This document shows, piece by piece, positions 67 through 56,019 of a stretch of 64,000 nucleotides of DNA. The position numbers and the translations under genes were made by a program. The notes under the pieces were generated by a model, which saw only the letters and a program-made list of their open reading frames with translations, ran no database searches and was not told the origin of the DNA. Positions within the stretch are counted from its first letter, which is position 1. Each line of letters opens with the position of its first letter. This DNA is from a virus (Duplodnaviria > Heunggongvirae > Uroviricota > Caudoviricetes), in the IMG/VR virus record IMGVR_UViG_3300036884_000676. One strand, given 5' to 3'.

Positions 67-726
67 ATGTTTTTACACACATTAGATGAAATGAAATTTT
101 CATTTATTAAATCTGGAAATTATTTGAATACTGGAAACTTCCTTTATTTTTTTAGAACCGAGTGGATAAAAAAACCAATAGATGTATTAGATGGATTTGA
201 ATTTAAAGATTCTGTTAAGAATACATTCAGAACATATGGTAAAATCAGTAATGAGAAATTATCTTTTTATTTCGGTATCAGGAATGGTATTTTAGAATAT
301 GGTTTTTATAATGATCTAAAAGATGTTATTTATAAAACTGGACAATTAAATATAAAAGACAATGAATTGAGACAAATAAAATCATATAGTTGTTTAGCTA
401 TGATAAGTGGGGTACTGAGAATAGCATCCACTAAAACATTAACTTTATTACATGAAATCAAAAAAGATCTAAAATATTTCTTTGAAGATAAGACCAGTAA
501 AGGAATAATCATCTTAACAACTATGAGACTCAGAAAAGTCATTTCAAAAGAATTATTAAAAGATAATATGAAAAATTCCGATGATCTAACTAATACTTTT
601 GTTGAATGGTGTAATAAATATCCTTGGGGTAAAAAGATAGAAGCATACATTGATGATTCCGAGGATGATGTTTCTTTCTACATAAAAATAAAATCCAAGA
701 ATAGTGATAAACCTGTTGTCTTATAA
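67..726 (+). CDS. hypothetical protein, possibly truncated at the window start
   Basis: 219-aa ORF from the six-frame track. Its stop overlaps the next gene start. No recognisable motif. Confidence 0.4.
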   Translation: MFLHTLDEMKFSFIKSGNYLNTGNFLYFFRTEWIKKPIDVLDGFEFKDSVKNTFRTYGKISNEKLSFYFGIRNGILEYGFYNDLKDVIYKTGQLNIKDNELRQIKSYSCLAMISGVLRIASTKTLTLLHEIKKDLKYFFEDKTSKGIIILTTMRLRKVISKELLKDNMKNSDDLTNTFVEWCNKYPWGKKIEAYIDDSEDDVSFYIKIKSKNSDKPVVL

Positions 727-1288
727 TAGTTTCATTAATGAATCTAAAATATATGAACATCCATTATTTCATGGTTCTGGCCGTAAATTTGATATCTTTG
801 ACTTTAATAGATTGGGTCAAGATGGTCATTTATTAAGTTTTCTTGGGATTCATTTTACTGAAAATGATACTGTTGCTGAAAGATTTACAAATCCACCTGA
901 TTATATTATCTACGAAATAGAATTGAAATATAACAAATTCTTGAAAATAAAAGAGGGTAATTTAGTCAAAGAAATGTTGAAGTTTGGACTTGAAAAAAAG
1001 ATAATCGATTTATCAATTTTTCCATCAAAAAACATATTTGATTTACCATATTTTGGAACAAAGAATTGTTTAATGAATCAATTATTTAATTTAACAGATG
1101 GAAAAGCAAAAGAAATTTCATTGGAATATAAAAACCACCTAATGAATCAAGGATATGATTGTATTAAGTATATAAATGAAATAGAATCACCAGACATTAA
1201 AAGATTTGATTGGATTATCTTTAAATCAGAACAAATAAAAGTATTAAAAGTGTGGGATTTAAAACCAAGATTGGAAATAAAATGGTAA
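704..1288 (+). CDS. H-G-S motif protein, ART-fold-like paralog 1 with a CTS-like N-terminus
   Basis: N-terminus MINLLSYNSFINE. HPLFHGSG is followed about 27 aa later by LGIHFTEN. Paralogous to the next ORF and to 20452, 35218 and 54197. Confidence 0.55.
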   Translation: MINLLSYNSFINESKIYEHPLFHGSGRKFDIFDFNRLGQDGHLLSFLGIHFTENDTVAERFTNPPDYIIYEIELKYNKFLKIKEGNLVKEMLKFGLEKKIIDLSIFPSKNIFDLPYFGTKNCLMNQLFNLTDGKAKEISLEYKNHLMNQGYDCIKYINEIESPDIKRFDWIIFKSEQIKVLKVWDLKPRLEIKW

Positions 1289-1872
1289 CGAAATTTTACA
1301 TATTTGAAAAAAAAAACAATATAGTTGGTCCATTATATCATGGAAGTGGAATAGTATTCGATAAATTTTCAAATGAAAAATTAGGAAGTAGCCGAAATGT
1401 TGTACATTTAATGGATTTTCTTGGAATTCACTTCACCCCCGATAAAAAAATGGCCGAAAGATTATTCTCAAAACCACCCAATTATGTTGTTTATGAAGTT
1501 GAAATCAAGGTTAACAAGATTTTAAAAAAGAGAGAAAGTCAATTAGTGAGGGATATGCTGAAATGGGGAGGTGAAAATGACTATGTTGACAAGGAATTCA
1601 TTGAAAAGAATTACTTATTATATAGAACATATAGTAATATAACACCATTCGATAGAGAAAATAAAATAATTTCATTGAATCATTTTCTATTAGAAGATAA
1701 CACATTTGATAAAAAGAAATTAACACTTGATTACAAACAATATTTAATTGAACAGGGTTATGATTCCATACATTATTTGAATGAAATAGAATGGTCATCA
1801 GATGAAAGATGGGATTGGATAGTTTTTAATGATAACCAGATAAAAATAATTAATATATACAAGGGTAAATAA
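1282..1872 (+). CDS. H-G-S motif protein, ART-fold-like paralog 2 (tandem duplicate)
   Basis: Aligns over its length with 704..1288: LYHGSG...LGIHFTPD...EQGYDSIHYLNEIE versus NQGYDCIKYINEIE. The likely start is the ATG at 1282, which overlaps the upstream stop in an ATGGTAA junction. Confidence 0.55.
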   Translation: MVTKFYIFEKKNNIVGPLYHGSGIVFDKFSNEKLGSSRNVVHLMDFLGIHFTPDKKMAERLFSKPPNYVVYEVEIKVNKILKKRESQLVRDMLKWGGENDYVDKEFIEKNYLLYRTYSNITPFDRENKIISLNHFLLEDNTFDKKKLTLDYKQYLIEQGYDSIHYLNEIEWSSDERWDWIVFNDNQIKIINIYKGK

Positions 1873-1888
1873 AAAATAAAATCAATAT

Positions 1889-2353
1889 ATGAAACACATT
1901 AAAGAATTTGAATTGAATGAAAATGCAACTCCAGTTGATTCTTTCAGAAAAGAAATTATGGATGCATATATTTGGATAAGAAAAAACAATAGTACCATTC
2001 CAGATGAAGTTTTAGATTTCATGAAAGACGCTGCCATTGAAAAATTAGATTCTAAAACTAAAGAAAGTATACTTTTGCTTAAATTTAGAACAGAAGATAT
2101 TTATCATAATAAACACACTTTGGCTGTTAATCAGAGGTCAGATGATTCAATTGGATATTCATTTTTCTCTGGATGGCAAAGTTCTGGTATGGGTAATGCT
2201 TTGAGTAATATGATGATGAAGAAATCTTTACCATCAAGTGTAAAAGGTTTCTCCAATATAAAACAATTACAAAGTGAAATTCAAAGTTGTATCGATTCTG
2301 GTGTTGGTGAGAAGGTAATGAAAGTTGAAGAAATAAATAAGATAAGGAAATAA
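1889..2353 (+). CDS. hypothetical protein
   Basis: 154-aa ORF, tightly packed with its neighbours. Confidence 0.4.
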   Translation: MKHIKEFELNENATPVDSFRKEIMDAYIWIRKNNSTIPDEVLDFMKDAAIEKLDSKTKESILLLKFRTEDIYHNKHTLAVNQRSDDSIGYSFFSGWQSSGMGNALSNMMMKKSLPSSVKGFSNIKQLQSEIQSCIDSGVGEKVMKVEEINKIRK

Positions 2354-3097
2354 ATGAAGAATATCCTGACATACAATGAATTTATAAATGAAGATTATCG
2401 TGATGTTGTTGGTTGTGGTAGTGGGGGTATACACGCGGATGACCGTCAACAACCTATTATAGCAAGTGGTAAATATAGTAGTGGAAGTATTACCAGTATT
2501 AGTAGTATCGGTGATTGGAACGGAGATAAAAAGGTATTAGGAACAGAAGAAATAAAGGATGTTAAGAGTGATTATTTTAATCAAAGAAGAAGGAGAAAAA
2601 AGAAAGAAACACCAATAGAAGAAGAAAAGAAAAAGAGAATGAGAAGAAAAGTATATAAAAATTTATTAGCTCTTGATAAAGCGGTAGAAGAAGATAAAGA
2701 TAATAATATAACAACAAAATTTGCTGATTTTAAAGAGGATAAAATAAAGAAATTCGACAAGACCAAGGAATTTGATCCCTTATCCGATGATATCATGGTA
2801 TTTCAAGAACTCGAAGATGGTGAAATTGAAAAAGTTAAAGAACCAGTAAAAATTTTACAAGTCACTGGAATCATAACTGATCCAGAAAAGATTAAGAAAC
2901 TTGAATCTGTTAGTGGTGGACCTGTTTTTTCTACCGAATTAAAAGTAAAATCTGTTAAAAGAGGTGATATAATATGGTTAACAGCCTTATTGGAAAGACC
3001 ACATGCAACTACATCTTGGAATGCTCAAACAATGGGTGTAATCAAAGCAAGAGTTGTTGATTACTATTACGGTTTAAATAAATTGAAATATGTATGA
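2354..3097 (+). CDS. basic internal-protein-like protein with CTS-like leader
   Basis: N-terminus MKNILTYNEFINE| followed by a Gly/Ser-rich segment. Highly basic stretch RRRRKKKETPIEEEKKKRMRRK. The ATGA overlap with the upstream ORF is typical of phage gene junctions. Confidence 0.5.
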   Translation: MKNILTYNEFINEDYRDVVGCGSGGIHADDRQQPIIASGKYSSGSITSISSIGDWNGDKKVLGTEEIKDVKSDYFNQRRRRKKKETPIEEEKKKRMRRKVYKNLLALDKAVEEDKDNNITTKFADFKEDKIKKFDKTKEFDPLSDDIMVFQELEDGEIEKVKEPVKILQVTGIITDPEKIKKLESVSGGPVFSTELKVKSVKRGDIIWLTALLERPHATTSWNAQTMGVIKARVVDYYYGLNKLKYV

Positions 3098-3630
3098 TTA
3101 TAAGATTCAAAAAATTTAATGAAAAATTAGATCTTGTTAAAGATGTTGACAAATTGTTGGAAATATCCAAATGCAAAGCTTTTTATATCATTTTCAATAA
3201 TAAAACAAAACAAGAAATTAGTATTCCATTAGATTATTGTAGTGGTGAATATGCCGCACTTCTTAAAGGTTATTCTGTTAAACCATATAAAAAAAGTAAT
3301 TTGATTCCAATTACTGAAAAGAATGCACTCATGTTAATAGTAGATTGGGATTATTCATATGAAATAAAATCAGATCTTGCTGATGAAAAACGTAAAATTC
3401 TTATTATTCAATACGATTTACCAGATAAATTACCAGAAATGAAAGAGAATTTATTAAATGAATCTGATACTCAGACATATAGGAAACTCCAATTCATAAG
3501 AGAACAAATCAGAAATATAACAAAAACTATTCGTGAAGTTGATTGGAAAAAAACTACTGACGGTGAGAAAAGTGATATATCTGATTCTTTGGAAAATTTA
3601 GTTTCTTTGGTAAAAAATAAAGCCAAATAA
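3094..3630 (+). CDS. hypothetical protein
   Basis: 178-aa ORF with an overlapping start. Confidence 0.4.
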   Translation: MIIRFKKFNEKLDLVKDVDKLLEISKCKAFYIIFNNKTKQEISIPLDYCSGEYAALLKGYSVKPYKKSNLIPITEKNALMLIVDWDYSYEIKSDLADEKRKILIIQYDLPDKLPEMKENLLNESDTQTYRKLQFIREQIRNITKTIREVDWKKTTDGEKSDISDSLENLVSLVKNKAK

Positions 3631-3637
3631 TTTTTTT

Positions 3638-5617
3638 ATGTTAGAGAAATATAGTATTTTTGTAGTTCAAATCCCTACCAACATGGAAAAGTCAGATAGA
3701 ATCGTGAGTGATTACCCTACATTTCTCAAAGAAGAAGCCCAAAATCAAGAAGTCGGAATAGGTACTCGATTCTATCATCAGAATGGATGGTGGGTTGTAA
3801 AGAGTAAAGGAATTCCTGACCATTGGGGATGTGTAAGCGAAAAGACTAATGCATTCGTGACCTTTTCTACTCAAGAAATTCTTGATTCTGAAAATCCAGT
3901 TGATGACAATCAGGGTAAAGATATAAAATTATTCTATACCGTAGAAACAAAGAGGATTGAGATTCCTGTTGGTAGTGATACACACAAAAGTAGTGACGAT
4001 AAGAAAAAAACATTTGAAAAAATATTCAGAAGAATAGCGAAAGTATCCAAGTTTATTAAAGTCCCCGAACCCACACTTACTCTTATTGAAAAGAAAAAAT
4101 ATTTCGCCTGTTGTCATCCAAGTGAAAGAGGATTATCATACGACAGGAAAACCGTTTCAAAGAAAGAAAAACCAGAAGAAACAGATAGGGTGGTGATTGT
4201 TTATACAGATATAAACGAAGCCACCGATAGATGTAATTTTCTCAATAAAGATTCTATTGAAAAACAAAAAAAGTCAAAATTGGGAATGGAAGTTTGGAAT
4301 GATGATGAAGATAATAAATTGTTTGAACCTTGGAGAGTAGTATCCAAAGAAGTTGAAGTATATGACCTGAAAATGGCTACCGTCCTTAAACCTGAGGATG
4401 AATGGTTAATTTTGGGTACTATTGATCACAAAGACGGACTTTTGAAAAATGCTCCGGGTCAACAAGTTCCAATTAGTTTAGTTCCTGACCAGATGATAGG
4501 TCATTCATATTGTGATCATTGTAAAAGAACCATATACAGAAACAAGACTGTTTTTGTTCAGAAAATAAAGACAGGTGAGATCCTCAGGGTTGGGGGTTCA
4601 TGTATTCGTAACTATTTGGGATATGATTATGAAAAGGTATTATCCTATTTAACCGATATTTCATTCCTTGATGAAAGTTACGGTGATTTCGATGGTGGTG
4701 GTGATGATTGGGATGAAGGATTTAGTGGTGGTTGGGGTCCAAAATTTGATGTGGAGATCTCAACTAATGAGGTAATCAAGTATTTCTATTGGTTCTACAA
4801 AAAGAATGGATATATGTCCAAAGCAACAGCTGAGAAGATTAATCAAAAAAGAGACCAAGATTATCTCGCTGACCCTGATCATCCAAAAGAAGAATATTAT
4901 AATAAAAAAGAAGTTAAATCAACATCAGGTAGAGTACAAGATGATGTTGATTACGCTCATAACCCCCCTGACAGAAGAAATTATCATGGTAAAAGTTCAT
5001 CAGAATATCAAGAAGATTTTAATAGATGGTCTGATTTTGTCACAATATACAATGAGAGATTAGAAACCACATCCGATGAAGAATTACAATGGGTTATTGA
5101 TTTCATTCACGCCAATCGTGATAATAACTTCATCTTTAACGCCAGTAACATGATTAAGGCCGGTGCCGTTCAGAAACATCTCCTGTATTACATTACAGGT
5201 GCTTGTTCTTGGTACTTCGGTAAACTCTCTCAGGAAGATAGGAAAAGAAGAGAAGCTGAAGAAGCTCTCTCTGGTGGTAAGAAAGAATCAGAATATGTTG
5301 GTACAGTTGGAGAAAAATCAAGACTTGAAAATCTTGAAGTGGTTCATATCAGTGGATACCAAACAGAATGGAATTGGTCAAATGTATATAAATTAAAAGA
5401 CCAGATAGGAAATATTTATACTAAGTTTGGTACTATTGGTTCTCAGTTCATTGTAAAACCTACTGAACAAGGTAGACAAAAAGACGAACAGGGGAATCTC
5501 ATTATTAATGATATTTTAGTAGGTGATGTGGTATCAGCTACAGCTGAAATTAAGAGACATGAGGAATATCAGGGAAAGAAACAAACCACTCTGGGTCGTT
5601 TTTCAAAACTTAAATAA
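3638..5617 (+). CDS. large hypothetical protein
   Basis: 659-aa uninterrupted ORF with a Cys pair (CDHCKRT...GGSC). No family recognised. Confidence 0.5.
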   Translation: MLEKYSIFVVQIPTNMEKSDRIVSDYPTFLKEEAQNQEVGIGTRFYHQNGWWVVKSKGIPDHWGCVSEKTNAFVTFSTQEILDSENPVDDNQGKDIKLFYTVETKRIEIPVGSDTHKSSDDKKKTFEKIFRRIAKVSKFIKVPEPTLTLIEKKKYFACCHPSERGLSYDRKTVSKKEKPEETDRVVIVYTDINEATDRCNFLNKDSIEKQKKSKLGMEVWNDDEDNKLFEPWRVVSKEVEVYDLKMATVLKPEDEWLILGTIDHKDGLLKNAPGQQVPISLVPDQMIGHSYCDHCKRTIYRNKTVFVQKIKTGEILRVGGSCIRNYLGYDYEKVLSYLTDISFLDESYGDFDGGGDDWDEGFSGGWGPKFDVEISTNEVIKYFYWFYKKNGYMSKATAEKINQKRDQDYLADPDHPKEEYYNKKEVKSTSGRVQDDVDYAHNPPDRRNYHGKSSSEYQEDFNRWSDFVTIYNERLETTSDEELQWVIDFIHANRDNNFIFNASNMIKAGAVQKHLLYYITGACSWYFGKLSQEDRKRREAEEALSGGKKESEYVGTVGEKSRLENLEVVHISGYQTEWNWSNVYKLKDQIGNIYTKFGTIGSQFIVKPTEQGRQKDEQGNLIINDILVGDVVSATAEIKRHEEYQGKKQTTLGRFSKLK

Positions 5618-5621: not shown

Positions 5622-6047
5622 TTAAACTTCATCTATAATTCTATCTGGTGGTATGTTTCTTTCTACATAAACAGCTTTACCATCTTCACCTTTTGAAAAT
5701 TGAGAACTCCATTCACTCATATCACTTGCTTCTTCATCCTTAATTAAATCATAACCTGATAAATCGACTTTCCATATTGTCATCTCTTGTGGATTATATC
5801 CATCTTCTTCATTGAATTCTTTAAACCATTCAGCATATTTCAAATCCAACCAAAAATAATTTCTTATTGGTGACATTTCTTTTTTACCAAGTCTGGAATA
5901 TCTTTCTTTTGGTATCTTTTTAATACCCTCTTTTAAAATTTTGGAATCTAATTTCGATGGAGCTACATGATAACCAACGATTATCTTCTCAGAATTCTCA
6001 TTTATACTTAAATAATCATCAAAGTTCAGAATCATCGTCACCATCAC
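5622..6047 (-). CDS. hypothetical protein
   Basis: 141-aa ORF on the minus strand. Confidence 0.4.
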   Translation of the reverse strand: MMVTMILNFDDYLSINENSEKIIVGYHVAPSKLDSKILKEGIKKIPKERYSRLGKKEMSPIRNYFWLDLKYAEWFKEFNEEDGYNPQEMTIWKVDLSGYDLIKDEEASDMSEWSSQFSKGEDGKAVYVERNIPPDRIIDEV

Positions 6048-6603
6048 TCGTTTGGAAAAAAGTATTTAAATCTTCAATATGAACTTTCTTTCTACCAGAT
6101 GATACGGGTTTTCCCTCTTCTTCTGGTTCTTCTGGAATTAAATCTTCATCATCTGGATCTGGTTTATTCCAAACATCATCTTCTTCTTCCTGTTCATGTT
6201 CTGTATTTTCATCATCAGATAATTCCTTTGGTTTAAATTCTATTTTGTAAATAAGTTCTCCACCGACTTTAGAATGACCTGATGAATCTTTACTTTTTTC
6301 TTTTTCTCTTTCGGTAGCTTCAATTGCCTGAACAAATATTAGAGTAACATCGAATTTTCTTTTCTTTGATGGACCTTCTCCCAATTCCAGTTCAAGATGT
6401 TGTTGAGGATCAACATAATTAAAATCTTCGGGATTAACTTTAAATCTTATCATATCACCATCAAAAGTTTTCTTTAAAGCATGATCAAAATTACCATCTA
6501 CTATGGTCTTTGCACTTTTGGTCACTTCTTCTGGTAATTCGGCTATAGTTGTTTTTTTATTTTCTTTAATGAAGGAATCAAAATTCATAATGAACTTGTT
6601 CAT
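6019..6603 (-). CDS. acidic internal-protein-like protein with CTS-like leader
   Basis: The probable start is the internal Met giving MNKFIMNFDSFIKE|N. The C-terminal half is strongly acidic (EEEDDVWNKPDPDDEDLIPEEPEEEG). The track ORF extends to 6654, but that N-terminal extension looks spurious. Confidence 0.45.
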   Translation of the reverse strand: MNKFIMNFDSFIKENKKTTIAELPEEVTKSAKTIVDGNFDHALKKTFDGDMIRFKVNPEDFNYVDPQQHLELELGEGPSKKRKFDVTLIFVQAIEATEREKEKSKDSSGHSKVGGELIYKIEFKPKELSDDENTEHEQEEEDDVWNKPDPDDEDLIPEEPEEEGKPVSSGRKKVHIEDLNTFFQTSDGDDDSEL

Positions 6604-6658
6604 GACTAATTGGTTTTTCTTTTTATATATTAAAATAAAAAAATCAATTTTCAACCTG

Positions 6659-7111
6659 TCAAATATAATTTACTTGAACTCCACTTTCTTCAAAAAGAAC
6701 CTGAGTTATTTTGAAATCTTCACCCCATCTTTCATCTTCGAAATTAGGCTTACTACAAAAGATAGTTGAAACACCAGATTGAATAATTGCTCTTGCACAA
6801 TCGCAACAAGGATACCATTCAATATACATAACAGAACCTCGTAGTTTTATTCCATTACGAGCCGCATTATAAATAGAGTTCCTTTCAGCGTGTTCGGTGT
6901 ACTTATATTTTACCGATCTTTCGTATCTTTCGTTAATTGAATCATCAACACCACGAGGAAATCCATTATATCCGATTGACAGAATTGCATTACTCTCAGG
7001 ATCTATAATGACAGCCGATGTCTGTGTCGATTTATCCTTACTCCATTTTTTTATAAAAGAGGCGAGATCTAAAAATTTTTTATCCCAATTTTCTAAGACA
7101 TTATTTAGCAT
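6659..7111 (-). CDS. cd: dCMP deaminase
   Basis: Zinc-binding HAE...PCxxC signature of the cytidine/deoxycytidylate deaminase family (HAERNSIYNAA...YPCCDCARAI). Size and context match T4 cd. Confidence 0.85.
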   Translation of the reverse strand: MLNNVLENWDKKFLDLASFIKKWSKDKSTQTSAVIIDPESNAILSIGYNGFPRGVDDSINERYERSVKYKYTEHAERNSIYNAARNGIKLRGSVMYIEWYPCCDCARAIIQSGVSTIFCSKPNFEDERWGEDFKITQVLFEESGVQVNYI

Positions 7112-8301: not shown

Positions 8302-8787
8302 TTAGTCAATATGTATACGAGAATGTAAATACATCCTTGGTGTCCATTCCTCTGTTGAAATGATACTTATTGATTGAGCGATGGTTGTAAGATACAAATT
8401 ATTTTTAGTTTCTAATTCTTTGTTTATATAGTCAACTAATTTATCAACTAATATCCTTTCTAACTGTTGAACGATGGTTGAACTATCCAAAGAAGATTCT
8501 TTAATTGCTGTTATTTGAGCACTATCAACCTCAACATCGAAACTTAAAGTTGGTAATCCTTCTTTCAATATAACATTTTTATCCTTTATATTTAATTGAG
8601 ATAGAATTTTTAAAGAAACTGGTAATAAGTTTTGAGCAATATCATCCTCACCAAGTTTTGTTACTATTAAATTTTCAATTTCATGTTTAAGATGAAATTC
8701 AGCGTATTCAGCCATAATTTTTCTAACTTTTTCGTCTGTTACTTTTAGAGCGTCCATAATAGGACTCCATTTTGTGTAAATATCCAT
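8302..8787 (-). CDS. hypothetical protein
   Basis: 161-aa ORF. Confidence 0.4.
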   Translation of the reverse strand: MDIYTKWSPIMDALKVTDEKVRKIMAEYAEFHLKHEIENLIVTKLGEDDIAQNLLPVSLKILSQLNIKDKNVILKEGLPTLSFDVEVDSAQITAIKESSLDSSTIVQQLERILVDKLVDYINKELETKNNLYLTTIAQSISIISTEEWTPRMYLHSRIHID

Positions 8788-10407: not shown

Positions 10408-11582
10408 ACATTAACTACATTGTAAATATTGTTCAAAGTGTCTTAGATAAAGTTCATTCTAATTCTCAAAAAAAAATGTTAAAAATAAGACCCAATGAAC
10501 AAACGCCCAAGGAAATTTCAATGGCCTGTGCAGTATGTGGAGATAGTCATGATAAAATGAATGCCAAGCGTTCACATTTATATTTAAAAAATATGTATGT
10601 GAAGTGCTATAATGAACAATCGTGTAGTATGTTTTTTACTAAATGGTGTGATCATTTTGGTATTAAATTAGATCCAGAAAAAAAACTTCAAATTTATGAT
10701 TACATAAGTCAAAATATTTCCTTTACTTCGAAAGAAGATTTCGCTGTTGAAAACTTAGACAGATTATTAGATGCTAAAGAATACATGGATTTTTTAAATT
10801 CTCGTAAGGGGTGTTTTCTTACTAATATATCACCAATAAAAAAAGGTTCATTTGCTTTTGATTATTTGAAAAAAAGAAAAATTCAGAATTATAGTAATAT
10901 TCTTCAAGGAATCTACCACATTACTAATCGATGGGCTGAGTCTGTCATTATTATATTAAACCGAAGAGGAAACAAGTTACTTGGTTTTCAATTAAGAAAT
11001 TTGAAAGACGATAAAACTAAAAGAATTTATAAGGAATATGAGTTTGAATATTTGTATAACTATAAGAACACGACTGATTCCTTGGATGAACTGGAATCAA
11101 TATCATATAATAAACTATCCCATTTATTCAATATATTGAATGTTGATTTTAATCAACCAATAAACGCCTTCGAGGGTTATTTGGATAGTGTTTTTTTTCC
11201 TAATTCTATATCGTTAATTGGATTGGATACAAATATAGATCTTATTCAGAATGACAATCTGGAACTTCGATTTGTTTTTGATAATGATGAACCGGGATTA
11301 CGAAAAGCTAAGAAAATGTTAGAACAGGGAAAATCCGTCTTTCTGTGGCGAAAACTTATTGATGATTTAGCTAAGGGGGATTATGTTTATCTCAATACCC
11401 TCAATAACATAAAAGATATGAATCAATTAGTTATTTTACTGAATAATCCAAATATTTATTTTGATTTGAATCTGGAAAATTATTTTTCAAGAGATAGATT
11501 TGATATGATTTATTTGGAAGATATTACTAAGAAAAAAACAAAAAAGACTGATCCGTCTCAATGGGATAATATCATTTTGTAA
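10365..11582 (+). CDS. DNA primase (T4 gp61-like)
   Basis: Zinc ribbon CAVCGDSHDKMNAKRSHLYL...VKCYNEQSC, compared with T4 gp61 CPVCGDSKTDQNKARGWYY...IHCYNC. TOPRIM-like motif FVFDNDEPG, compared with T4 VLDNEPRHP. The true start may be the internal Met at 10476, because 10365..10407 overlaps the upstream gene. Confidence 0.8.
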   Translation: MADELFENTNKKELDINYIVNIVQSVLDKVHSNSQKKMLKIRPNEQTPKEISMACAVCGDSHDKMNAKRSHLYLKNMYVKCYNEQSCSMFFTKWCDHFGIKLDPEKKLQIYDYISQNISFTSKEDFAVENLDRLLDAKEYMDFLNSRKGCFLTNISPIKKGSFAFDYLKKRKIQNYSNILQGIYHITNRWAESVIIILNRRGNKLLGFQLRNLKDDKTKRIYKEYEFEYLYNYKNTTDSLDELESISYNKLSHLFNILNVDFNQPINAFEGYLDSVFFPNSISLIGLDTNIDLIQNDNLELRFVFDNDEPGLRKAKKMLEQGKSVFLWRKLIDDLAKGDYVYLNTLNNIKDMNQLVILLNNPNIYFDLNLENYFSRDRFDMIYLEDITKKKTKKTDPSQWDNIIL

Positions 11583-11630
11583 ACTTCTATCCTATTAAAA
11601 TGTATAAAGTAAAAAATATTTCAGAATATA

Positions 11631-12410
11631 ATGGCTAAAAGTGAGAATATTAAATTTGAAATTTCACAATCAAATTTAAAGAAATTATTAGATAAGATAA
11701 AGGATTTGGCTAAGATTCATGAGAAGAAAATTGTCGTAATGAAATTCGAAAAAGACAGTTTAATACTCTTTTCATTTGTCGGAAAAACTTTCAAAAATAT
11801 TTATGCCTTTAAAAATTATATTTTCAAATATGATGAAATTTTTAGTTTTATTACAGATATACCAGAACCAGTTTCATATATAGCAAAGAATGGTATAAAG
11901 CTTTATCATACCATAAATCAGTTTTTAGAATATGATTCGGTAAGTTGTGAAATATCTGTAAGTAATACAGCTCCCGGATTTGCTGATTCGTGGAGAATCC
12001 ATCATGAAGATATTTTCGATACAACATTGATAGCTGGAGATAATCTAATTGTCGGGAAAGACATTAATATGGATGATATTAATCGTCTAATGGACACATC
12101 AACTGCTTTATTTAATTTTAATCTATCCAATGCTAATTATGAAAAGATAAAGAAAATGTCAACGATTGATGTAAAGGAAAATGACATTCTTACAATCACT
12201 GTTGAGAAGAATAAATTATATATGGGTGAAAAATGGAGATTGAAGATTTCTGATAATATAGAACAACCTGATTATACATATACATTTCCAAAAAGATACT
12301 TTAATACCATCTCGACCACAACCGATATTGAGATTTTTGTTTTTGAACAGTATATTCTTACTAAATATGATGATTATAACCTCATGATAGTGTTAGAAAC
12401 CTCAGTATAA
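11631..12410 (+). CDS. hypothetical protein
   Basis: 259-aa ORF downstream of the primase. It shows weak, unverified resemblance to the gp45 sliding-clamp C-terminus. Confidence 0.4.
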   Translation: MAKSENIKFEISQSNLKKLLDKIKDLAKIHEKKIVVMKFEKDSLILFSFVGKTFKNIYAFKNYIFKYDEIFSFITDIPEPVSYIAKNGIKLYHTINQFLEYDSVSCEISVSNTAPGFADSWRIHHEDIFDTTLIAGDNLIVGKDINMDDINRLMDTSTALFNFNLSNANYEKIKKMSTIDVKENDILTITVEKNKLYMGEKWRLKISDNIEQPDYTYTFPKRYFNTISTTTDIEIFVFEQYILTKYDDYNLMIVLETSV

Positions 12411-17227: not shown

Positions 17228-17398
17228 ATGAGTAAAGAAGATTTATTAAAAATATGGCAACAAAGGGCAAAAGAATTACACGAAATTGCTGATAATGAGA
17301 GGATAAATTTTCCAGATAGAATTGAAGCCGGTGCAAAAGCAAATCAATTATTACAATGTATGCTCGATATAAAACAATTTTTAGAGGAAAAAATATGA
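17228..17398 (+). CDS. small hypothetical protein (56 aa, not in the ORF track)
   Basis: Manual translation: MSKEDLLKIWQQRAKELHEIADNERINFPDRIEAGAKANQLLQCMLDIKQFLEEKI. Its stop overlaps the PPK2 ATG in an ATGA junction. Confidence 0.3.
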   Translation: MSKEDLLKIWQQRAKELHEIADNERINFPDRIEAGAKANQLLQCMLDIKQFLEEKI

Positions 17399-18237
17399 AT
17401 ATAAAACAATTTGAAATAAACGGTAAGGGAAAAGTTGATATTAATTTAAATGATATTGATTTGAATGATGTCGATTCCGATATTACCGAACAAATAGAGG
17501 GGAACATAAAAAGCCTCATTGATTTACAGGATAAGTTATATGCTGATGGTAAATATTCAATACTATTAATTATTCAAGCGCTTGATACGGCTGGTAAAGA
17601 CGGAATCGTTAAGCATGTAATGTCGGGTCTTAATCCCCAAGCAACTCAGGTTTATAGTTTTAAACAACCCACTTCAGAGGAATTGAATCATGATTTCTTA
17701 TGGAAAGCTCACAAAAGTTTACCAGAGAGAGGACACATTGGTATCTTTAATCGTTCCTATTATGAAGAAGTTCTCGTAGTTAAGGTTCATGATCTGATAA
17801 AATTTCAGAGAATTCCAACCGTTTTGATTCATAAGGATATCTTTGAAGAAAGATATGAACAGATAAGAAATTTTGAAAAGATGCTTCATAAAAATGGAAC
17901 AGTCGTTATAAAAATATTCTTGAACATATCCAAAAAAGAACAAAAAGAAAGATTACTGGAGAGGATTGATGATAAATCTAAGAATTGGAAATTTTCGGAA
18001 TCTGACTTAAAAGAGCGTCAGTTCTGGGGTGATTATATGAAATGTTATGAAGATCTGATTAATGAAACATCCACCGATGATTGTCCTTGGTATGTTGTTC
18101 CGGCCAATCATAAAAAAACATCACGACTTATTGTTTCGAAAATTTTGGTTGAGAGAATGAAAAAATTAAATCTGGAATATCCTCAATTAACAAAAGAGCA
18201 AGAACAGAATTTATTGAAATGTAAGGAACAATTATAA
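17395..18237 (+). CDS. ppk2: polyphosphate kinase 2 (PPK2)
   Basis: PPK2 Walker A-like motif ALDTAGKDG and a conserved core (SFKQPTSEELNHDFLWKAHKSLPERGHIGIFNRSYYEEVLVVKVH). The probable start is the ATG at 17395 (MNIKQFE) rather than the track start at 17356. Confidence 0.85.
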   Translation: MNIKQFEINGKGKVDINLNDIDLNDVDSDITEQIEGNIKSLIDLQDKLYADGKYSILLIIQALDTAGKDGIVKHVMSGLNPQATQVYSFKQPTSEELNHDFLWKAHKSLPERGHIGIFNRSYYEEVLVVKVHDLIKFQRIPTVLIHKDIFEERYEQIRNFEKMLHKNGTVVIKIFLNISKKEQKERLLERIDDKSKNWKFSESDLKERQFWGDYMKCYEDLINETSTDDCPWYVVPANHKKTSRLIVSKILVERMKKLNLEYPQLTKEQEQNLLKCKEQL

Positions 18238-21729: not shown

Positions 21730-21927
21730 TTATTTTTCAATGAAATTTTTACGGATGTAATCAGCCGCGTCATATAATCCAAAATGATTGGCTACATGAT
21801 ATAAATCTTGCATTTGTTCAGATAGTGAATCCTGTCTTTGTGGAAGTTTTTGGATTTTTTTTAATTCCTTATGACCCAACCATTCGGAATTTTCCTTGAG
21901 TAAATCTGAAAATTTATCCATAAACAC
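21730..21927 (-). CDS. hypothetical protein
   Basis: 65-aa ORF at the head of the minus-strand cluster. Confidence 0.3.
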   Translation of the reverse strand: MFMDKFSDLLKENSEWLGHKELKKIQKLPQRQDSLSEQMQDLYHVANHFGLYDAADYIRKNFIEK

Positions 21928-38565: not shown

Positions 38566-39471
38566 TTAAATACGAAGTCCGTTACTGGTTATGTCTAAAT
38601 CTCTCATATTGAGATCAAACATCAATGAATCTGGAATTAATATACATTTACTATCTGTCCATACTTCAGGAACACCTCCAGATGTTTTTACTTTTTTATT
38701 CAAAAGTCCTTTATAACTGAGAACTTCAAATCCATTTCTTATTGGTGAAAGTAAATCTTCAAGAACAGACAGTAATGATTTATTTTTTGTAACTATTTGG
38801 TCAGATATATAATTAAAGAATTTCTTATAATATTCCTTACCAGTTCTTCCGAAATCAACATAATCATCATAAGAACCACGATAATATTGAGATATTTTCT
38901 TCGATGAACCGTTAGGATCTTTTTTAATTTCATCTTCTATTTTTTTCACCTGTTTTACAAATATATTATAAACAAGATTATTCAGTTTCTTTTCATCAAA
39001 CAAAGCTTGATGAAAATCATCAATCAAAATATCGAAATAATTTAATTCATCAATACCAGTTTTGGATTGTAAATAATCAAATGATTGCCACATATCTCCC
39101 TGTGAAACAACACCAAATTTGGCACCATCAAAAGGTATTACTCTAAAAACAGTTCCATAAGGTACGGCTTGATAATACATAAGTGTACCAATCAAAGCGT
39201 GTTTTCTTTTCGGGTAATCTTTCCATAAAATTGAATTATCTACAATCATATTATAATAATTATCAGCGTTTGCGGAAAGGCGATGATATTTTTTGGGATC
39301 TATTAAATATGGGTTTTGTTCAAGATATATTCCACGATAAATTTTCTTATCATTATAATCGAAATCTTTACAGTTTTCTTCAATAATTCGTTTTACATCA
39401 TCTTTTGATAATGTGGTAGTATCAATACGATTATTCTCTAATATGAATGTATTAAAAGTAGTTATCATCAA
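38566..39471 (-). CDS. CTS-leader protein
   Basis: N-terminus MMITTFNTFILE|NNR. 301 aa. Confidence 0.45.
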   Translation of the reverse strand: MMITTFNTFILENNRIDTTTLSKDDVKRIIEENCKDFDYNDKKIYRGIYLEQNPYLIDPKKYHRLSANADNYYNMIVDNSILWKDYPKRKHALIGTLMYYQAVPYGTVFRVIPFDGAKFGVVSQGDMWQSFDYLQSKTGIDELNYFDILIDDFHQALFDEKKLNNLVYNIFVKQVKKIEDEIKKDPNGSSKKISQYYRGSYDDYVDFGRTGKEYYKKFFNYISDQIVTKNKSLLSVLEDLLSPIRNGFEVLSYKGLLNKKVKTSGGVPEVWTDSKCILIPDSLMFDLNMRDLDITSNGLRI

Positions 39472-39524
39472 TGGTTATATATTAATTTTTAAAACAAAAA
39501 CCCCTCAATCATGATATAATTTAA

Positions 39525-50495: not shown

Positions 50496-51380
50496 ATGGA
50501 ATGGGATGCAATAAAATGGGCACAAACCTATAAAACTTCAAATCTTAACAGAAGAAAAGAACTTTTGATTGATGTTTGGGAAAACACGATTAAAATCGTT
50601 AAGAATGGAAAATACTTCTCGGATGGAGAAGTTATCATTGACAACTCGAAAGTGTGCCAGAACTCTTTATTTACTGAAAATGGCCCAATTTATGACCCAA
50701 CGGGGATAAATGACTTTAAAACTGAAATATTGGTCATGGATGCTGATTGTTTGGATGTAGCAAGAACGATGGAAAATCCGATAGTTTTAAATATGGCCAG
50801 TTATAAGAATCCCGGTGGTGGTGTAATAAATGGTTCATCGGCACAGGAAGAAAATTTATTCAGAAGAACCAATTTATTTAAATCTCTTTATCAATATGTT
50901 GATTATGCTCATCAGTATGGAATAGAACAAAATTCTAAATACAAATATCCATTGGGTGATTATGGTGCAATCTATTCAAAAGATATAACCGTTTTTCGTG
51001 GTTCTGAAAAAAATGGATATTATTTACTCTCCCATCCATTCAAATGTGCTTTTATATCTGTACCTGCAATAAAAAGACCAGAATTGAAGAATAGAAGAAT
51101 GAATGAAAATGACTTCTCCAAAACCAAACAAAAAATAAGAAGGATTTTTCAATTCGCTCATGAGAATGGACATAGAGATTTAGTTCTTTCCGCTTTTGGT
51201 TGTGGTGCTTATGGAAATCCACCCGAACAGATAGCTTCAATCTTTAAAGAATTATTAGATACTGAATATAAAGGGGTTTTTCATAAGATAGTATTCGCTA
51301 TCTATGATGATCATAACTCATATAAAGAACACAATCCAGATGGAAATTTAAAACCATTCAAGAAAATATTTAATATATAA
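50496..51380 (+). CDS. bacterial-type poly(ADP-ribose) glycohydrolase (DUF2263 macrodomain)
   Basis: NMASYKNPGGGVINGSSAQEENLFRRTNLFKSL carries the PARG GGG-X7-QEE catalytic signature. The C-terminal LVLSAFGCGAYGNP also matches bacterial PARGs. Confidence 0.75.
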   Translation: MEWDAIKWAQTYKTSNLNRRKELLIDVWENTIKIVKNGKYFSDGEVIIDNSKVCQNSLFTENGPIYDPTGINDFKTEILVMDADCLDVARTMENPIVLNMASYKNPGGGVINGSSAQEENLFRRTNLFKSLYQYVDYAHQYGIEQNSKYKYPLGDYGAIYSKDITVFRGSEKNGYYLLSHPFKCAFISVPAIKRPELKNRRMNENDFSKTKQKIRRIFQFAHENGHRDLVLSAFGCGAYGNPPEQIASIFKELLDTEYKGVFHKIVFAIYDDHNSYKEHNPDGNLKPFKKIFNI

Positions 51381-51387: not shown

Positions 51388-51972
51388 ATGACAAATTTAT
51401 ACATTGATGAATTGGATTTCGAAGATGATGAAAATATCAAAATTATTGATTTTCCAATAACAAGACAAGCCTATTCATATACTTGTGGTTGTGATATAGT
51501 AGAAAGAACAATGGAATTTTATGGTGAAAATTTTCGTGAATCTGATTTAGTTGAAATTTTGAAAACTAACGAAGAAGAAGGAACACTTGTAAAAAACATA
51601 GTGAAATTTTTTCATTATCATGATCTAAAGACTGAATTACAACAAGATATGACAATTGATGATCTGATTAAATATGTGGATAAGAACATTCCAGTAATTG
51701 TTTTGATACAAGCTTGGGGAACTGATTTTAAATTCAAAAGAAAATATAAAGAAACTTGGGGAGATGGACATTTTGTGGCTGTAATTGGATACACAGATAA
51801 ACTTTTATTAATTAGTGATCCGTCTTTATTTAATGTCGGATATATACCAAAATCTGAATTTATGAACAGATGGCATGACATTGATGATGGACTTGAAACA
51901 TATCAACTCGGATTGGCTGTTTTTGGAAGAAAAGCAATATTTGATAAAGATAAGTTAGAAAGAGTCAGATGA
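51388..51972 (+). CDS. papain-like cysteine peptidase (C39/C1-like)
   Basis: Q...YSYTCGCDIV is a nucleophile Cys context. DGHFVAVIGY resembles papain DHAVAAVGY around the catalytic His. Confidence 0.5.
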   Translation: MTNLYIDELDFEDDENIKIIDFPITRQAYSYTCGCDIVERTMEFYGENFRESDLVEILKTNEEEGTLVKNIVKFFHYHDLKTELQQDMTIDDLIKYVDKNIPVIVLIQAWGTDFKFKRKYKETWGDGHFVAVIGYTDKLLLISDPSLFNVGYIPKSEFMNRWHDIDDGLETYQLGLAVFGRKAIFDKDKLERVR

Positions 51973-53475: not shown

Positions 53476-54202
53476 TATAAATAAAATATATTTCGATAAT
53501 TGTTTACATCTAATGCCTGATATTGATACTCATATTGTTGATATGATTCTTGCTGATTTACCATACGGAGTCACAAGAAACAAGAAAGATATTATGATCC
53601 CATTTGAATTACTCTGGAAGAACTACAATCGAATTATAAAACCGAATGGATGTATTGCTTTATTCGCTCAGGGAATGTTCGCTCACAAACTTGCTTTATC
53701 TAATGAGAAAATGTATCGTTATGATTTGATATGGAAAAAAGGAGAAAGGGTCACTGGATTTTTAAATGCAAAAAAACAAATACTTAGAAACCATGAGCAA
53801 ATTTTGATTTTCTATAAAAAACAACCAACTTACCATCCACAATTTACAGAGGGGACACCTCAGCATTCAAAAGGTAACGCTTTTTCTTTCAAAGAAGGAA
53901 AAAATCAAAATTATGGTTATTTTGATTCGAAAATTCCAGATATAAGAAAAGGAACTACACAAAAATATCCGAAAAGTGTTTTAAACTTCGAAAAACCTTG
54001 GCCACCTGTACATAGAACCCAAAAACCAGTAAAATTGTGTGAATGGTTAATATTGACCTTTACGAATCCCGGAGAATTAGTACTGGATAACACTTGTGGT
54101 ATTGGAACAACCTGTATAGCAGCTAAGAATACAGGAAGAAATTTCATAGGAATTGAAAATGATGAAGAATTTTATAATATGGATTATTATCATTTGTTAT
54201 GA
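53468..54202 (+). CDS. DNA N6-adenine/N4-cytosine methyltransferase (beta class)
   Basis: Motif IV ILADLPYG (DPPY-like) precedes motif I VLDNTCGIGTT. The C-terminal GRNFIGIE is typical of N-methyltransferases with the circularly permuted beta-class architecture. Confidence 0.75.
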   Translation: MIDINKIYFDNCLHLMPDIDTHIVDMILADLPYGVTRNKKDIMIPFELLWKNYNRIIKPNGCIALFAQGMFAHKLALSNEKMYRYDLIWKKGERVTGFLNAKKQILRNHEQILIFYKKQPTYHPQFTEGTPQHSKGNAFSFKEGKNQNYGYFDSKIPDIRKGTTQKYPKSVLNFEKPWPPVHRTQKPVKLCEWLILTFTNPGELVLDNTCGIGTTCIAAKNTGRNFIGIENDEEFYNMDYYHLL

Positions 54203-54706
54203 ATAAATATTAGAATCATCTATATCCCAACTTCCATCATTTTTAATATTCTTAATATAATTCGGGTAAAACATAATAAAATCTTTTCTAATTACATCAA
54301 TATCAGTATTGGACTTTTCAATAATTATACCATCATAATTTAACAATATCTTATTCTTTATATTAATTATCTCACTCTTCCATTCCTTAACATCATTCAT
54401 ATAATCAAACCAAGTTTCATAAATCTTTGGATTTTCTATTTTCAAATAAACTTTTAAAATTTTCGGATTTAATTTATTGTGTGTAAAAACTTTAGCAACC
54501 TTTAATGATTCAGTAAACCAACACCCTTTACTACAATCAAATATTTTATCAATAGTTGATTTATAATATTCACCTGTTCCGTGATAAGCAATTAATGGAT
54601 GATTATTTTCATCTACGACTTTACTTTCATCAAACCATTTATAAAAATTAGGATTTAAATTTTTATATTCTTCAAACATTTTTAGATATTTCATAGAATT
54701 TACCAT
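54197..54706 (-). CDS. H-G-T motif protein (ART-fold-like paralog)
   Basis: MVNSMKYLKMFEE... then PLIAYHGTGEY...KGCWFTESLKV. C-terminal ILLNYDGIIIEKS aligns with the other paralogs. Confidence 0.5.
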   Translation of the reverse strand: MVNSMKYLKMFEEYKNLNPNFYKWFDESKVVDENNHPLIAYHGTGEYYKSTIDKIFDCSKGCWFTESLKVAKVFTHNKLNPKILKVYLKIENPKIYETWFDYMNDVKEWKSEIINIKNKILLNYDGIIIEKSNTDIDVIRKDFIMFYPNYIKNIKNDGSWDIDDSNIYS

Positions 54707-56019
54707 CTTTTAGTATTAGATATCTTAAAATCTTTTATTCTATTTAAATTTTCTTCGGTTGGCATAGGATCTACATTGAATTTCTTCTTAAATTCACGCC
54801 TCGATATTCCCCAACTTTCATATCCTTTCGAATCTAAATTATTAAATACGATTCCACCACTTGTATTACTTCTCCAAACATACTGAGATTCTATTCTTAT
54901 TCCATCTAATTCATAGTTGGCCTTTTTATCATCATGATCGAAGAATTGAACCGATAATGGACTATTTGCTCCGATCCAATAATCGCCATCCACAATTTCT
55001 ATATCATCTATGGTAAATTTGTAATTTACTGGAATTTCTATGATATATTCTTTTTCTTTTTTACCAGAAACATAATCTACTTCTCCAAAAAATTCTTCTG
55101 TCTTTGGTGAAGTGACTATTTTTACCTTAGTCGGATCAACTCTCAAAATAATACCCTCTTTATTTGCGAAATAAGCAGCTATATCCCTTGATTCGGTAAA
55201 AGATAAGAATTTTCCATCCGATATTTTTGACATTCCTTTCTCAACGATAAATTGAATCAAATTATCAATGAAAGTTTTGACCCAAGTAGTATGTTTATCA
55301 TCAATCCCTTTAGCTTGTTCTTGTGATACTTTTCTTAATTGTTCAATTTCTTTACCTTTTAATCCTTGGAATACCCTTATTCCCCTATATAAATTCTTTG
55401 GAAGTTTCGGTTTATCTTTTTTTATTTTATAATGGTGATAGAAGGAATATAACCAAACATATTGAACTATGTTATTAACTTTCTTAATTGATAAATTATT
55501 TGTTATCGTATAGGCTGGAATACCATCAAAATCAACCCATCTTTTCACGACATCCTTGTGGAGATCAAAATCATATTTAGTACTTTTAGGGTTTGTATTT
55601 TTAATTTTTTCAAGATCCGTAAATCTATTTAAAAATCTAAGTCCATTTGTAGAATTCACATCACCAAACACATTTCTACTTTCTAATCCACCAGAGGCAA
55701 CAATTAACATAGCTGTTTGTTGTCTGAGATCTTTAAAAATGCTAGCTCCCTCCTTTGGAATTTTTTGTCCTATCTGAGCGACAGTATGTAATAAAGATTT
55801 ACTAACTGAATCCTTCCAATTAAGAATCATATTCTCTCTGATTTGAGTATATTTATTAAAGTCCATTCCCATCAAATTAACGAGTTCTTCTTCAGTATTA
55901 AAACCAGTTTTTATGGAATTTTTTAACTTTTCCTTAAATTCTGACCAATCAGTAAATTTTATCGAATCATTGAATTGACCATATCTTTCATTCAAAAATT
56001 CTGAGAATGAATACAACAT
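54700..56019 (-). CDS. Alt-like ADP-ribosyltransferase (R-S-E clade) with CTS-like leader
   Basis: The probable start is the internal Met at 56019, giving MLYSFSEFLNE|R. The R motif is NLYRGIRV, the S-x-S/T motif is FLSFTESRDIA and the E-x-E motif is KEKEYIIEI. The upstream part of the 569-aa track ORF overlaps a plus-strand ORF and is probably spurious. Confidence 0.5.
   Translation of the reverse strand: MLYSFSEFLNERYGQFNDSIKFTDWSEFKEKLKNSIKTGFNTEEELVNLMGMDFNKYTQIRENMILNWKDSVSKSLLHTVAQIGQKIPKEGASIFKDLRQQTAMLIVASGGLESRNVFGDVNSTNGLRFLNRFTDLEKIKNTNPKSTKYDFDLHKDVVKRWVDFDGIPAYTITNNLSIKKVNNIVQYVWLYSFYHHYKIKKDKPKLPKNLYRGIRVFQGLKGKEIEQLRKVSQEQAKGIDDKHTTWVKTFIDNLIQFIVEKGMSKISDGKFLSFTESRDIAAYFANKEGIILRVDPTKVKIVTSPKTEEFFGEVDYVSGKKEKEYIIEIPVNYKFTIDDIEIVDGDYWIGANSPLSVQFFDHDDKKANYELDGIRIESQYVWRSNTSGGIVFNNLDSKGYESWGISRREFKKKFNVDPMPTEENLNRIKDFKISNTKRW

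Follow-up and report, generated by a model that had tools for sequence, protein, structure and literature searches.

The 64,000-nt window analysed here is the whole stretch of DNA presented from the IMG/VR virus record IMGVR_UViG_3300036884_000676 (Caudoviricetes). It encodes a large set of proteins that start with the same short N-terminal leader, and these leader genes are the subject of the present analysis. The window is coding-dense, with a G+C content of 29%; no tRNA genes were found in it, and its genes have no Shine–Dalgarno sites and are preceded by A-rich stretches. The leader is 9–14 residues long and follows the pattern M-x(2-6)-[FY]-x-x-[FY]-[ILV]-x-E or the compressed pattern [FY]-x-[ILV]-F-E. 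A first-pass annotation of the window had listed at least 13 such proteins. All 13 N-termini quoted there are present in the sequence, and the set is real but was undercounted: we recognize 15 firm leader genes, including those at 1–726 and 1282–1872, and six weak ones (1889, 3094, 3638, 6047, 21927, and 54706). The positions that had been given for plus-strand genes are their starts, but most of those for minus-strand genes are the low (stop) ends of the open reading frames (ORFs). The true starts of the latter are at 20455, 20892, 21472, 21717, 30714, 36452, 39468 (ATG; TTG at 39471), and 56019.

A six-frame scan of the window with the strict motif [FY]..F[ILV].E returned 29 matches. Twelve of them lie in long real ORFs, each 3–7 codons past the start codon, with the Glu at residues 10–14. 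The sole other strict match in a real gene is at residue 25 of the 659-amino-acid ORF 3638–5617, and the remainder fall in short ORFs in non-coding frames. Going by amino-acid composition, chance would yield 2.2 matches over the full 20,397 residues and 0.12 in nine N-terminal positions of the 121 genes, so that the N-terminal excess is approximately 100-fold (12 versus 0.12; Poisson P<1e-15), with no excess elsewhere. Two further forms of the leader are also N-terminal, namely one with Tyr as the second aromatic residue and the compressed form [FY].[ILV]FE (MIKKFKIFEE at 35218 and MVTKFYIFE at 1282).

The same scan was applied to the uncultured phage LR756501, a complete 735-kb relative whose genome was joined from 15 pieces and in which 1,056 genes were scanned. 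The strict motif was N-terminal in 41 genes, compared with 0.66 expected, and internal in 19 cases, compared with 16 expected. Thus, the motif is not above chance internally either in the window or in LR756501, as the N-terminal role proposed by the first-pass annotation supposes. The form permitting Tyr, strict matches included, was N-terminal in 62 genes of LR756501, and the compressed form was N-terminal 21 times (0.66 expected). In total, 83 of the 1,056 genes carry a leader, and they are arranged in clusters across the whole genome. The share of genes with a leader is approximately 12% in the window and 8% in LR756501, versus approximately 1% in phage T4.

The leftmost firm leader gene, 1–726 (+), is 5'-truncated in the window and starts 5 nt before it. 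Its product begins with MIKDFLTYIKE/NQG, where the slash separates the leader from the mature part; the mature part, of approximately 232 amino acids, has no family match, and TTAATATATAC lies directly upstream of the start. Just left of the window are leader genes with the N-termini MIILRFDEFLLE, MKMKKFNEFVNE, and MIVNFKVFEG. The genes 704–1288 (+), with the leader (V/M)INLLSYNSFINE/SKIYEHPLFHGSG, and 1282–1872 (+), with the variant leader MVTKFYIFE/KKNNIVGPLYHGSG and a public gene call of 196 amino acids, are paralogous (BLASTP E=2e-40). Both carry an ADP-ribosyltransferase (ART) cargo of the ART-PolyVal type; the first matches Pfam PF18760 with E=4.9e-7 and 31.0 bits against a cutoff of 31.2, and the second exceeds the cutoff (E=4.4e-10). 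The gene 2354–3097 (+) has the canonical leader MKNILTYNEFINE/DYRD and a cargo without an assigned family, although a leaderless homologue of its C-terminal domain is present in LR756501. On the minus strand, 6019–6603 (−) encodes an acidic cargo behind the leader MNKFIMNFDSFIKE/NKK, and its LR756501 orthologue m_163538 retains the leader as MDILRKYRHFINE.

Four of the firm leader genes belong to a five-gene run that extends from 21927 to 19556 on the minus strand. These are 21469–21717 (−), with MKRFTQFVKE/EKE and a mature part of only 72 amino acids; 20879–21472 (−), whose leader MKTFTEFLLE/AKGG is the nearest to T4 MKTYQEFIAE; 20452–20892 (−), with MDHFKTFKDFLLE/STN and a cargo that contains YHGT and has no Pfam match; and 19556–20455 (−), with MKNFRTYDEFLLE/FQKKD and a cargo for which a glutamine-synthetase-like, amidoligase-type fold is predicted (discussed below). 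The rest of the firm set is distributed over the right half of the window. The leader of 29893–30714 (−) is MRIKNYKEFITE/NVD. The gene 34434–35225 (+), with MITDFTDFLNE/NFQ, encodes a SprT-like zinc metallopeptidase (PF10263, E=4.1e-8, above the cutoff), and 35218–35718 (+), with the variant leader MIKKFKIFE/EQS, encodes an ART-PolyVal-like protein containing LYHGT (PF18760, E=3.6e-6, below the cutoff). A DnaJ J-domain occupies residues 62–115 of the product of 36102–36452 (−), which starts with MENLLTFEKFITE/MAG (PF00226, E=7.9e-20). The gene 38566–39468 (−), with MITTFNTFILE/NNR, belongs to a conserved cargo family of 290 amino acids, possibly a divergent ART fold. Finally, 54700–56019 (−) joins the leader MLYSFSEFLNE/RYG to a cargo of 428 amino acids; its start at 56019 is an internal ATG of a 569-amino-acid longest ORF and is backed by public gene calls of 439 amino acids and by an upstream promoter-like motif.

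The weak candidates lie beside the firm genes. Three are in the same-strand run 1889–5617 (+): 1889–2353 (+) starts with MKHIKEFELNE, 3094–3630 (+) starts with MIIRFKKFNE, and 3638–5617 (+) has DYPTFLKE at residues 25–31, where a later start is possible. Downstream of 6019–6603 is 5622–6047 (−), with (M)MVTMILNFDDYLSINE and no family match. The gene 21730–21927 (−), with (M)FMDKFSDLLKE, heads the five-gene run described above. The sixth, 54197–54706 (−), has the atypical leader MVNSMKYLKMFEE and an ART-PolyVal cargo (PF18760, E=3e-15), and it is co-directional with and immediately downstream of 54700–56019.

The leader is portable, in that the same tag is found on mature proteins that are unrelated according to Pfam, BLASTP, and Foldseek; the only mutual similarity between mature parts detected by BLASTP is that of the paralogues 704 and 1282–1872 (the 1252 ORF). 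The ART-PolyVal domain is found in four cargo proteins (704, 1282, 35218, and 54706), two of them above the Pfam cutoff and two just below it. The family takes its name from “polyvalent proteins,” whose predicted route into the host is alongside phage or plasmid DNA and in which metallopeptidase domains are typical (Iyer et al., 2017; PMC5512222). Of the domains named in the first-pass annotation, the J-domain and the SprT-like domain are confirmed by the Pfam matches given above. The “Alt-like ART” of that annotation is not confirmed, since phmmer searches with T4 Alt, ModA, and ModB against the 350 window ORFs of at least 50 amino acids gave no hit with E≤1 and the ARTs match ART-PolyVal instead. 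Similarly, the proposed ART-like character of the H-G-T proteins at 20892, 21472, and 6047 found no support, as none is linked to any ART family in Pfam; nor were the other “H-G-T” proteins picked up by jackhmmer when the four ART-PolyVal paralogues served as queries. The remaining cargo proteins match no Pfam family, no cargo protein of the window has more than one Pfam domain, and sequence searches of the PDB, made with three cargo proteins and one family profile, yielded no usable match. As a side observation, according to the precomputed Pfam annotation, a gene for a poly(ADP-ribose) glycohydrolase (PARG)-like protein at 50496–51380 (+) adjoins a C39-like peptidase gene at 51388–51972 (+), in a region that has at least four ADP-ribosyltransferase genes.

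Two cargo families could be followed into distant homologues. The 20455 protein has 35 metagenomic homologues with 31–64% identity, and all those inspected start with a leader, the closer homologues having the canonical form (MDHFKTYTDFLLE, MITFEEFLLE, and MITNYYNYINE) and the distant homologues the compressed form (MKHLIKFNLFEE). The leader Glu13 is one of 28 invariant columns of the family. In the AlphaFold2 (AF2) model of this protein, which has a predicted local distance difference test (pLDDT) score of 84.7, residues 1–12 score below 50, and the leader lies outside the fold. A Foldseek search with the model retrieved glutamine synthetases (best E=2e-5), and one distant homologue carries the Pfam domain Amidoligase_2. 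In a Pfam scan of the individual family members, hits were scattered and weak, with Amidoligase_2 matched by one member (E=0.0015). The model is thus consistent with a glutamine-synthetase-like fold and an amidoligase-type enzyme. The 38566–39468 family comprises 16 homologues with 25–69% identity, which retain the N-terminal leader and conserve the Glu in at least 90% of cases; here too the leader lies outside the fold (AF2 model with pLDDT of 83.1; residues 1–7 below 50). Canonical and compressed leaders swap between the members of both families. In addition, two cargo domains are fused in each of the metagenomic homologues P0005, P0006, and P0026, for example a ParB-like or YHGT module upstream of an amidoligase-like domain; the upstream module in P0006 is homologous to 20452–20892. 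Each begins with one full leader and has only [LV]-N-E where the two domains meet, as would be expected if targeting were needed once and cleavage at each junction.

The near-identity of the leader with the capsid targeting sequence (CTS) of T4, proposed in the first-pass annotation, is exact at the residues that have been mapped experimentally. In the T4 genome, ipII and ipIII start with MKTYQEFIAE and ipI starts with MKTFKEF. According to a review of Black's work (PMC9026906), the first ten residues of T4 IPIII are sufficient for incorporation into the head; residues 4 and 7 are the main determinants of targeting, processing relies on residues 8 and 10, and Asp at position 10 stops processing but not targeting. 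Y4, F7, I8, and E10 of T4 are exactly the four conserved positions of the leader described here. The T4 CTS is likewise an N-terminal propeptide of approximately 10 residues, with an aromatic residue at 4, Phe at 7, Ile or Leu at 8, and Glu at 10, and it is likewise attached to unrelated mature proteins. A control scan covering 158 of the 169 kb of T4 found N-terminal matches in 3 of 258 ORFs (ipII, ipIII, and gp61.1), compared with 12–15 of 121 genes in the window and approximately 83 of 1,056 in LR756501. The number of tagged proteins in T4 is therefore far smaller, as had been claimed. The control scan also recovered the known maturation site of gp23 (FGSFLTE/AEIGG), which shows that the pattern picks up genuine substrates of gp21. 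The match in gp61.1, a 54-amino-acid hypothetical protein (AF158101, 18966–19130, −), is a side result; its CTS-like N-terminus is MKTFKEFIKE.

The genes that such a system would require, a T4-type prohead protease and a capsid gene, had been suggested as targets of a search elsewhere in the genome, and both are encoded just past the window together with a T4-type portal. Contigs identical to the window run past its right end and carry these head genes within 7 kb, all on the minus strand. In window-equivalent coordinates, a Gp23-type capsid gene lies at 64254–66083 (−), 254 nt past the window end (Pfam Gp23, E=1.4e-27), and a Portal_T4 gene lies at 69103–70917 (−; precomputed annotation). Between the capsid and portal genes, approximately 2.2 kb past the window end, is a gene at 66188–68644 (−) that encodes a protein of 818 amino acids, which we refer to as the protease-scaffold protein. 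Its residues 1–188 match T4 gp21 (BLASTP E=3e-9), with GEFDHP and VSSRAAG aligned to GELNHP and VSSRGLG of gp21; we take these motifs to hold the catalytic His and Ser. A tblastn search with this protein hit 622 phage records; prohead core protease was a frequent annotation among them, and some genes were labelled “prohead core scaffold and protease.” Residues ~316–480 consist of ten tandem repeats of 14 residues, I-x-Y-x-x-Y-[IV]-A-E-x-[LVT]-D-x-x. Each repeat reproduces the four-position pattern of the leader: an aromatic residue, two residues, an aromatic residue, an aliphatic residue, one residue, and Glu. A profile built from the repeats alone placed 9 leader sites among its 30 best matches in the window. 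LR756501 has the same order of portal, protease-scaffold, and capsid genes, with 13 repeats. In the structural and replication modules of other genomes, regions too small for a fair count, similar repeats were present in LR756504, with one variant leader in 42 kb; the repeats of LR756500 were degenerate, with no leader in 41 kb; and Lak-A1 had neither repeats nor a canonical leader in 40 kb.

Several side observations were made on related head genes. The window itself contains, at 8302–8787 (−), a “mini capsid protein” of 161 amino acids with matches to three parts of the Gp23-type capsid protein, namely its N-terminal arm (E=1e-15), a middle segment, and its C-terminal strand; the sequence T[TA]ATATATA, described below, lies 25 nt upstream of this gene. 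LR756501 contains several small paralogues of capsid and portal fragments, and at 11314–11850 (−) a 178-amino-acid paralogue of the prohead protease domain, which is probably inactive because its motifs are changed to GELGYPD and FRPRAAG. A diverged protease paralogue has reportedly been observed in SPN3US-like giant phages as well. In Prevotella phage Lak-A1 (169078–209560), the fusion partner of the protease is an acidic region that lacks Y..YIAE repeats; three ORFs near the protease start with MIKEINKLLESLFDDD, MNKNIKILMESLFDEE, and MNKNIKHLLEYIVNEE, resembling the N-terminus of T4 Alt (MELITELFDED), and four small ORFs start with MIKF[KR][KE]K.

Leader genes are also associated with a promoter-like upstream motif. 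The sequence TTAATATATA[ACT] occurs in 12 copies in the window, compared with 2.9 expected, and none of 100 shuffles reached 12. Seven copies head runs of leader genes, at 1850–1860 (+), 6623–6633 (−), 21943–21953 (−), 30741–30751 (−), 36472–36482 (−), 39475–39485 (−), and 56036–56046 (−); they precede, by 4–29 nt, either a leader gene itself or the gene that opens a same-strand run containing leader genes. Thus, the run 1889–5617 stands behind the first of them, the distance is 20 nt for 6019–6603 and 36102–36452 and 27 nt for 29893–30714, and TTAATATATAA is found at 21943–21953, 16 nt upstream of 21730–21927, and at 56036–56046, 17 nt upstream of 54700–56019. The motif is also 5 nt upstream of 34434–35225. 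When a copy just outside the window is counted, every leader gene lies behind T[TA]ATATATA, either directly or via a same-strand run. Within 80 nt upstream of the start, T[TA]ATATATA precedes 6 of 13 leader genes versus 8 of 108 others in the window (P=9e-4) and 35 of 83 versus 169 of 973 in LR756501 (P=5e-7). Near-variants of the motif precede the capsid, protease-scaffold, and portal genes beside the window, and in LR756501 the motif itself precedes the portal gene, two terminase fragments, and the protease-scaffold gene. It resembles the T4 late promoter TATAAATA. These data are only consistent with co-expression of the leader genes with the head genes. As a separate observation, T[TA]ATATATA is present 289 times in LR756501, and it lies either 5–8 nt or 21–26 nt from the start codon, a sharply bimodal spacing that suggests both near-leaderless and short-leader mRNAs.

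Taken together, the match to the mapped T4 residues, the scaffold repeats, and the neighbouring gp21-type protease make it highly probable, as far as sequence comparison can indicate, that the leader belongs to a greatly expanded capsid-targeting propeptide system of the T4 type. From this we infer docking to the scaffold, cleavage after the Glu, presence in the virion, ejection, and an anti-host or anti-defence role of the cargo. One T[TA]ATATATA promoter class would drive transcription of both the leader genes and the genes for portal, terminase, and protease-scaffold. As the prohead assembles, the leader, which looks like one free scaffold repeat since it has the same four-position pattern, would dock its protein onto a scaffold core of approximately 10–13 tandem 14-residue repeats (Y-x-x-Y-[IV]-A-E). 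The gp21-type serine protease at the N-terminus of the scaffold would then cut after the Glu of every repeat and every leader, destroying the scaffold and freeing the mature cargo inside the head. Ejected with the DNA, the cargo would act on the host before phage gene expression; this step is deduced solely from the types of cargo domain. The delivered set would comprise ART-PolyVal ADP-ribosyltransferases, a SprT-like metallopeptidase, a J-domain protein, an amidoligase-like enzyme, and several unassigned proteins.

A number of observations weigh against this interpretation. The phage is uncultivated, and the system is known here from genes alone. The match of the protease domain to Pfam Peptidase_S77 (E=3e-5, 23.9 bits) is under the gathering score of 27. 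The profile derived from the repeats is not exclusive to leaders, and the two differ in their preferences, leaders favouring Phe as the second aromatic residue and N, L, T, or K just ahead of the Glu and the repeats having Tyr and Ala there, so that a pattern rather than a sequence is shared. The upstream motif also precedes 17% of the non-leader genes in LR756501, and in phmmer searches of that genome no homologue was detected of T4 gp55 or gp33, nor of gp45, gp22, gp24, Inh, or Alt; thus, the motif is not tied to a late sigma factor of the T4 type. A cargo of 30–50 kDa would need to unfold to pass the tail tube, and several cargo proteins are acidic, whereas the T4 internal proteins are basic.

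The alternative that fares best, although we consider it unlikely, is that the leader is a prohead-protease substrate site that serves in zymogen control or in a structural role inside the head, with neither ejection nor action on the host. The sequence provides only a cleavage-type motif and its co-occurrence with head genes, the roles of T4 IPII and IPIII are still unclear (PMC9026906), and some of the cargo is large (34–50 kDa), all of which would fit this explanation. Nevertheless, ARTs, SprT-like peptidases, and J-domain proteins are host-directed classes, predicted or known to be injected in the cases of polyvalent proteins and T4 Alt, and such enzymes are of no obvious use inside a DNA-filled head.

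An N-terminal signal unrelated to the capsid, such as a degron, an intracellular localization tag, or a translation-initiation sequence, is less probable still. In genes without Shine–Dalgarno sites the early coding sequence could affect initiation, and other systems use short amphipathic peptides at the N-terminus for targeting. The codons at the conserved positions argue against a signal at the RNA level: TTT and TTC are used in a ratio of 7:5, TAT and TAC in a ratio of 2:2, and six different codons encode the aliphatic Ile, Leu, or Val, a synonymous variation that indicates selection on the protein and not on the DNA. Moreover, the leader is present on only approximately 8–12% of genes, its hydrophobicity is too low for a secretion signal, and its pattern coincides both with the CTS residues mapped in T4 and with the phage's own scaffold repeats beside a gp21-type protease.

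It is very improbable that the shared N-terminus reflects only common descent or the shuffling of a DNA-level cassette, acting as a 5' recombination handle without protein function. The leader genes do occur in islands, 704 and 1282–1872 are true paralogues, and hyperplastic internal-protein loci are known in T4 relatives (PMC9026906). However, the leader DNA is not conserved, as the differing codons show, the mature folds are unrelated, and the four key residues are kept in homologues with 25–31% identity while their neighbours drift. Shuffling may spread the tag, yet it leaves its conservation unexplained. Compositional chance, for which a G+C content of 29% and proteins rich in F, Y, I, N, K, and E could be invoked, is refuted by the N-terminal counts in the window and in LR756501 and by internal counts at expectation.

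If the leader is a capsid-targeting propeptide, the system can be compared with those already described. Like T4, this phage combines a gp21-family protease, a Gp23-family capsid protein, and a T4-type portal in one genome, and its cargo includes ADP-ribosyltransferases. It differs from T4 in the number of leader genes (at least 15 in 64 kb, and approximately 83 in LR756501), in the cargo families, among which no homologue of the T4 internal proteins IPI–III, Alt, or Mod was detected in the window, in the leader length of 9–14 residues with a compressed variant, and in the fusion of the protease to a scaffold of tandem CTS-like 14-mers, whereas gp21 and gp22 of T4 are separate proteins; it is also uncultivated, with a presumed Bacteroidota host. 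The phiKZ-like giants (phiKZ, 201phi2-1, and SPN3US) share the giant genome size, and many of their head-internal proteins are cut C-terminal to Glu by a gp21-related protease (gp175/gp245) and ejected into the host; however, their cleavage motif is S/A/G-x-E, their propeptides mostly have 80–130 residues with no shared short tag, and in SPN3US only approximately 8 of roughly 50 head proteins are processed and no scaffold counterpart has been identified (PMC5694885). Polyvalent proteins have ART-PolyVal domains and a predicted entry with DNA in common with the cargo, and we take the SprT-like zinc peptidase to correspond to their metallopeptidase (MPTase)-type domains. In contrast, they carry 2–15 domains in one polypeptide (PMC5512222), whereas here each domain would be a separately tagged small protein. 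The Dar proteins of phage P1 are also head-packaged anti-host proteins whose incorporation depends on their N-terminal regions. They differ from the present case in an unrelated head type, in an ordered, interdependent incorporation, and in the lack of a shared short tag.

The affiliation of the phage was established at the protein level, as 11 kb of window sequence found no nucleotide match when compared by megablast with 50,697 phage records. A 491-amino-acid ORF at 56575–58050 (−) is a split family-B DNA polymerase containing the exonuclease domain and only the start of the polymerase domain, and it matches a PHROG family of polymerase pieces of approximately 500 amino acids. This fragment is 67% identical to its counterpart in the uncultured 735-kb phage LR756501/LR756503, 35–40% identical to those in the 462–642-kb genomes of the same study, and approximately 25% identical to those in Lak phages. 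In that survey, every genome larger than 634 kb belonged to the “Mahaphage” clade, with Bacteroidetes as the predicted hosts (Al-Shayeb et al., 2020; PMC7162821). The nearest polymerase relatives of the window are LR756501 (67%) and the 634–642-kb genomes (40%), which, by the polymerase comparison, places it in this clade. Several metagenomic contigs hold identical copies of window proteins, the longest of 736,551 bp. On these identical proteins and the polymerase relationship, we assign the window to a Mahaphage-type megaphage genome of approximately 736 kb, of which it is a piece, and presume a Bacteroidota host.

Auxiliary genes of the window include those for polyphosphate kinase 2 at 17356–18237 (+), a dCMP deaminase at 6659–7111 (−), a MazG–cytidylyltransferase fusion at 28644–29543 (−), and a 775-amino-acid membrane protein with an SPFH/Band 7 domain at 30849–33176 (+). 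A second recurrent motif was noticed in LR756501, where DPYGEExW occurs 106 times in approximately 95 proteins, usually 10 residues from the C-terminus or 10–20 from the N-terminus; some of these proteins have several copies, and some are also leader-bearing. The motif was sought in the window and its flanks and was not found there.

The mechanism outlined above is already known from T4. What is new is the lineage, that of the largest known phages, together with the scale and the architecture, which combines a protease fused to tandem tag-like scaffold repeats with effector domains of the polyvalent type that each sit on a tagged protein of their own. In the literature searched, no paper connects huge phages with capsid targeting sequences. 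More broadly, and only as a tentative proposal that we regard as quite possible, Mahaphage-type phages may have turned the T4 CTS into a general address tag, with a scaffold that is a concatemer of tag-like 14-mers joined to the protease that would cut it up, and approximately 8% of the proteome (about 80 proteins, mostly enzymes) pre-loaded into the head and delivered with the DNA. A single free tag would then be enough for any protein to assemble together with the scaffold. Because the tag matches that of T4 at the key residues, the prediction is testable in T4 by CTS-fusion assays already in use, and the tags could extend the T4 protein-packaging toolbox. The leader provides a simple sequence rule that predicts the head-carried proteins of the largest known phages, whose genes are mostly unannotated, and it flags dozens of enzymes as candidates for host takeover or anti-defence, among them several confident folds without a known relative. 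To our knowledge, the question of what the T4 CTS binds is not settled, and the protease-scaffold fusion suggests a concrete model of CTS recognition. If the tag is indeed general, it would suggest an answer to that question, and the “injectome” of these phages would far exceed that of any other known phage, on a par with the protein cargo of giant eukaryotic viruses.

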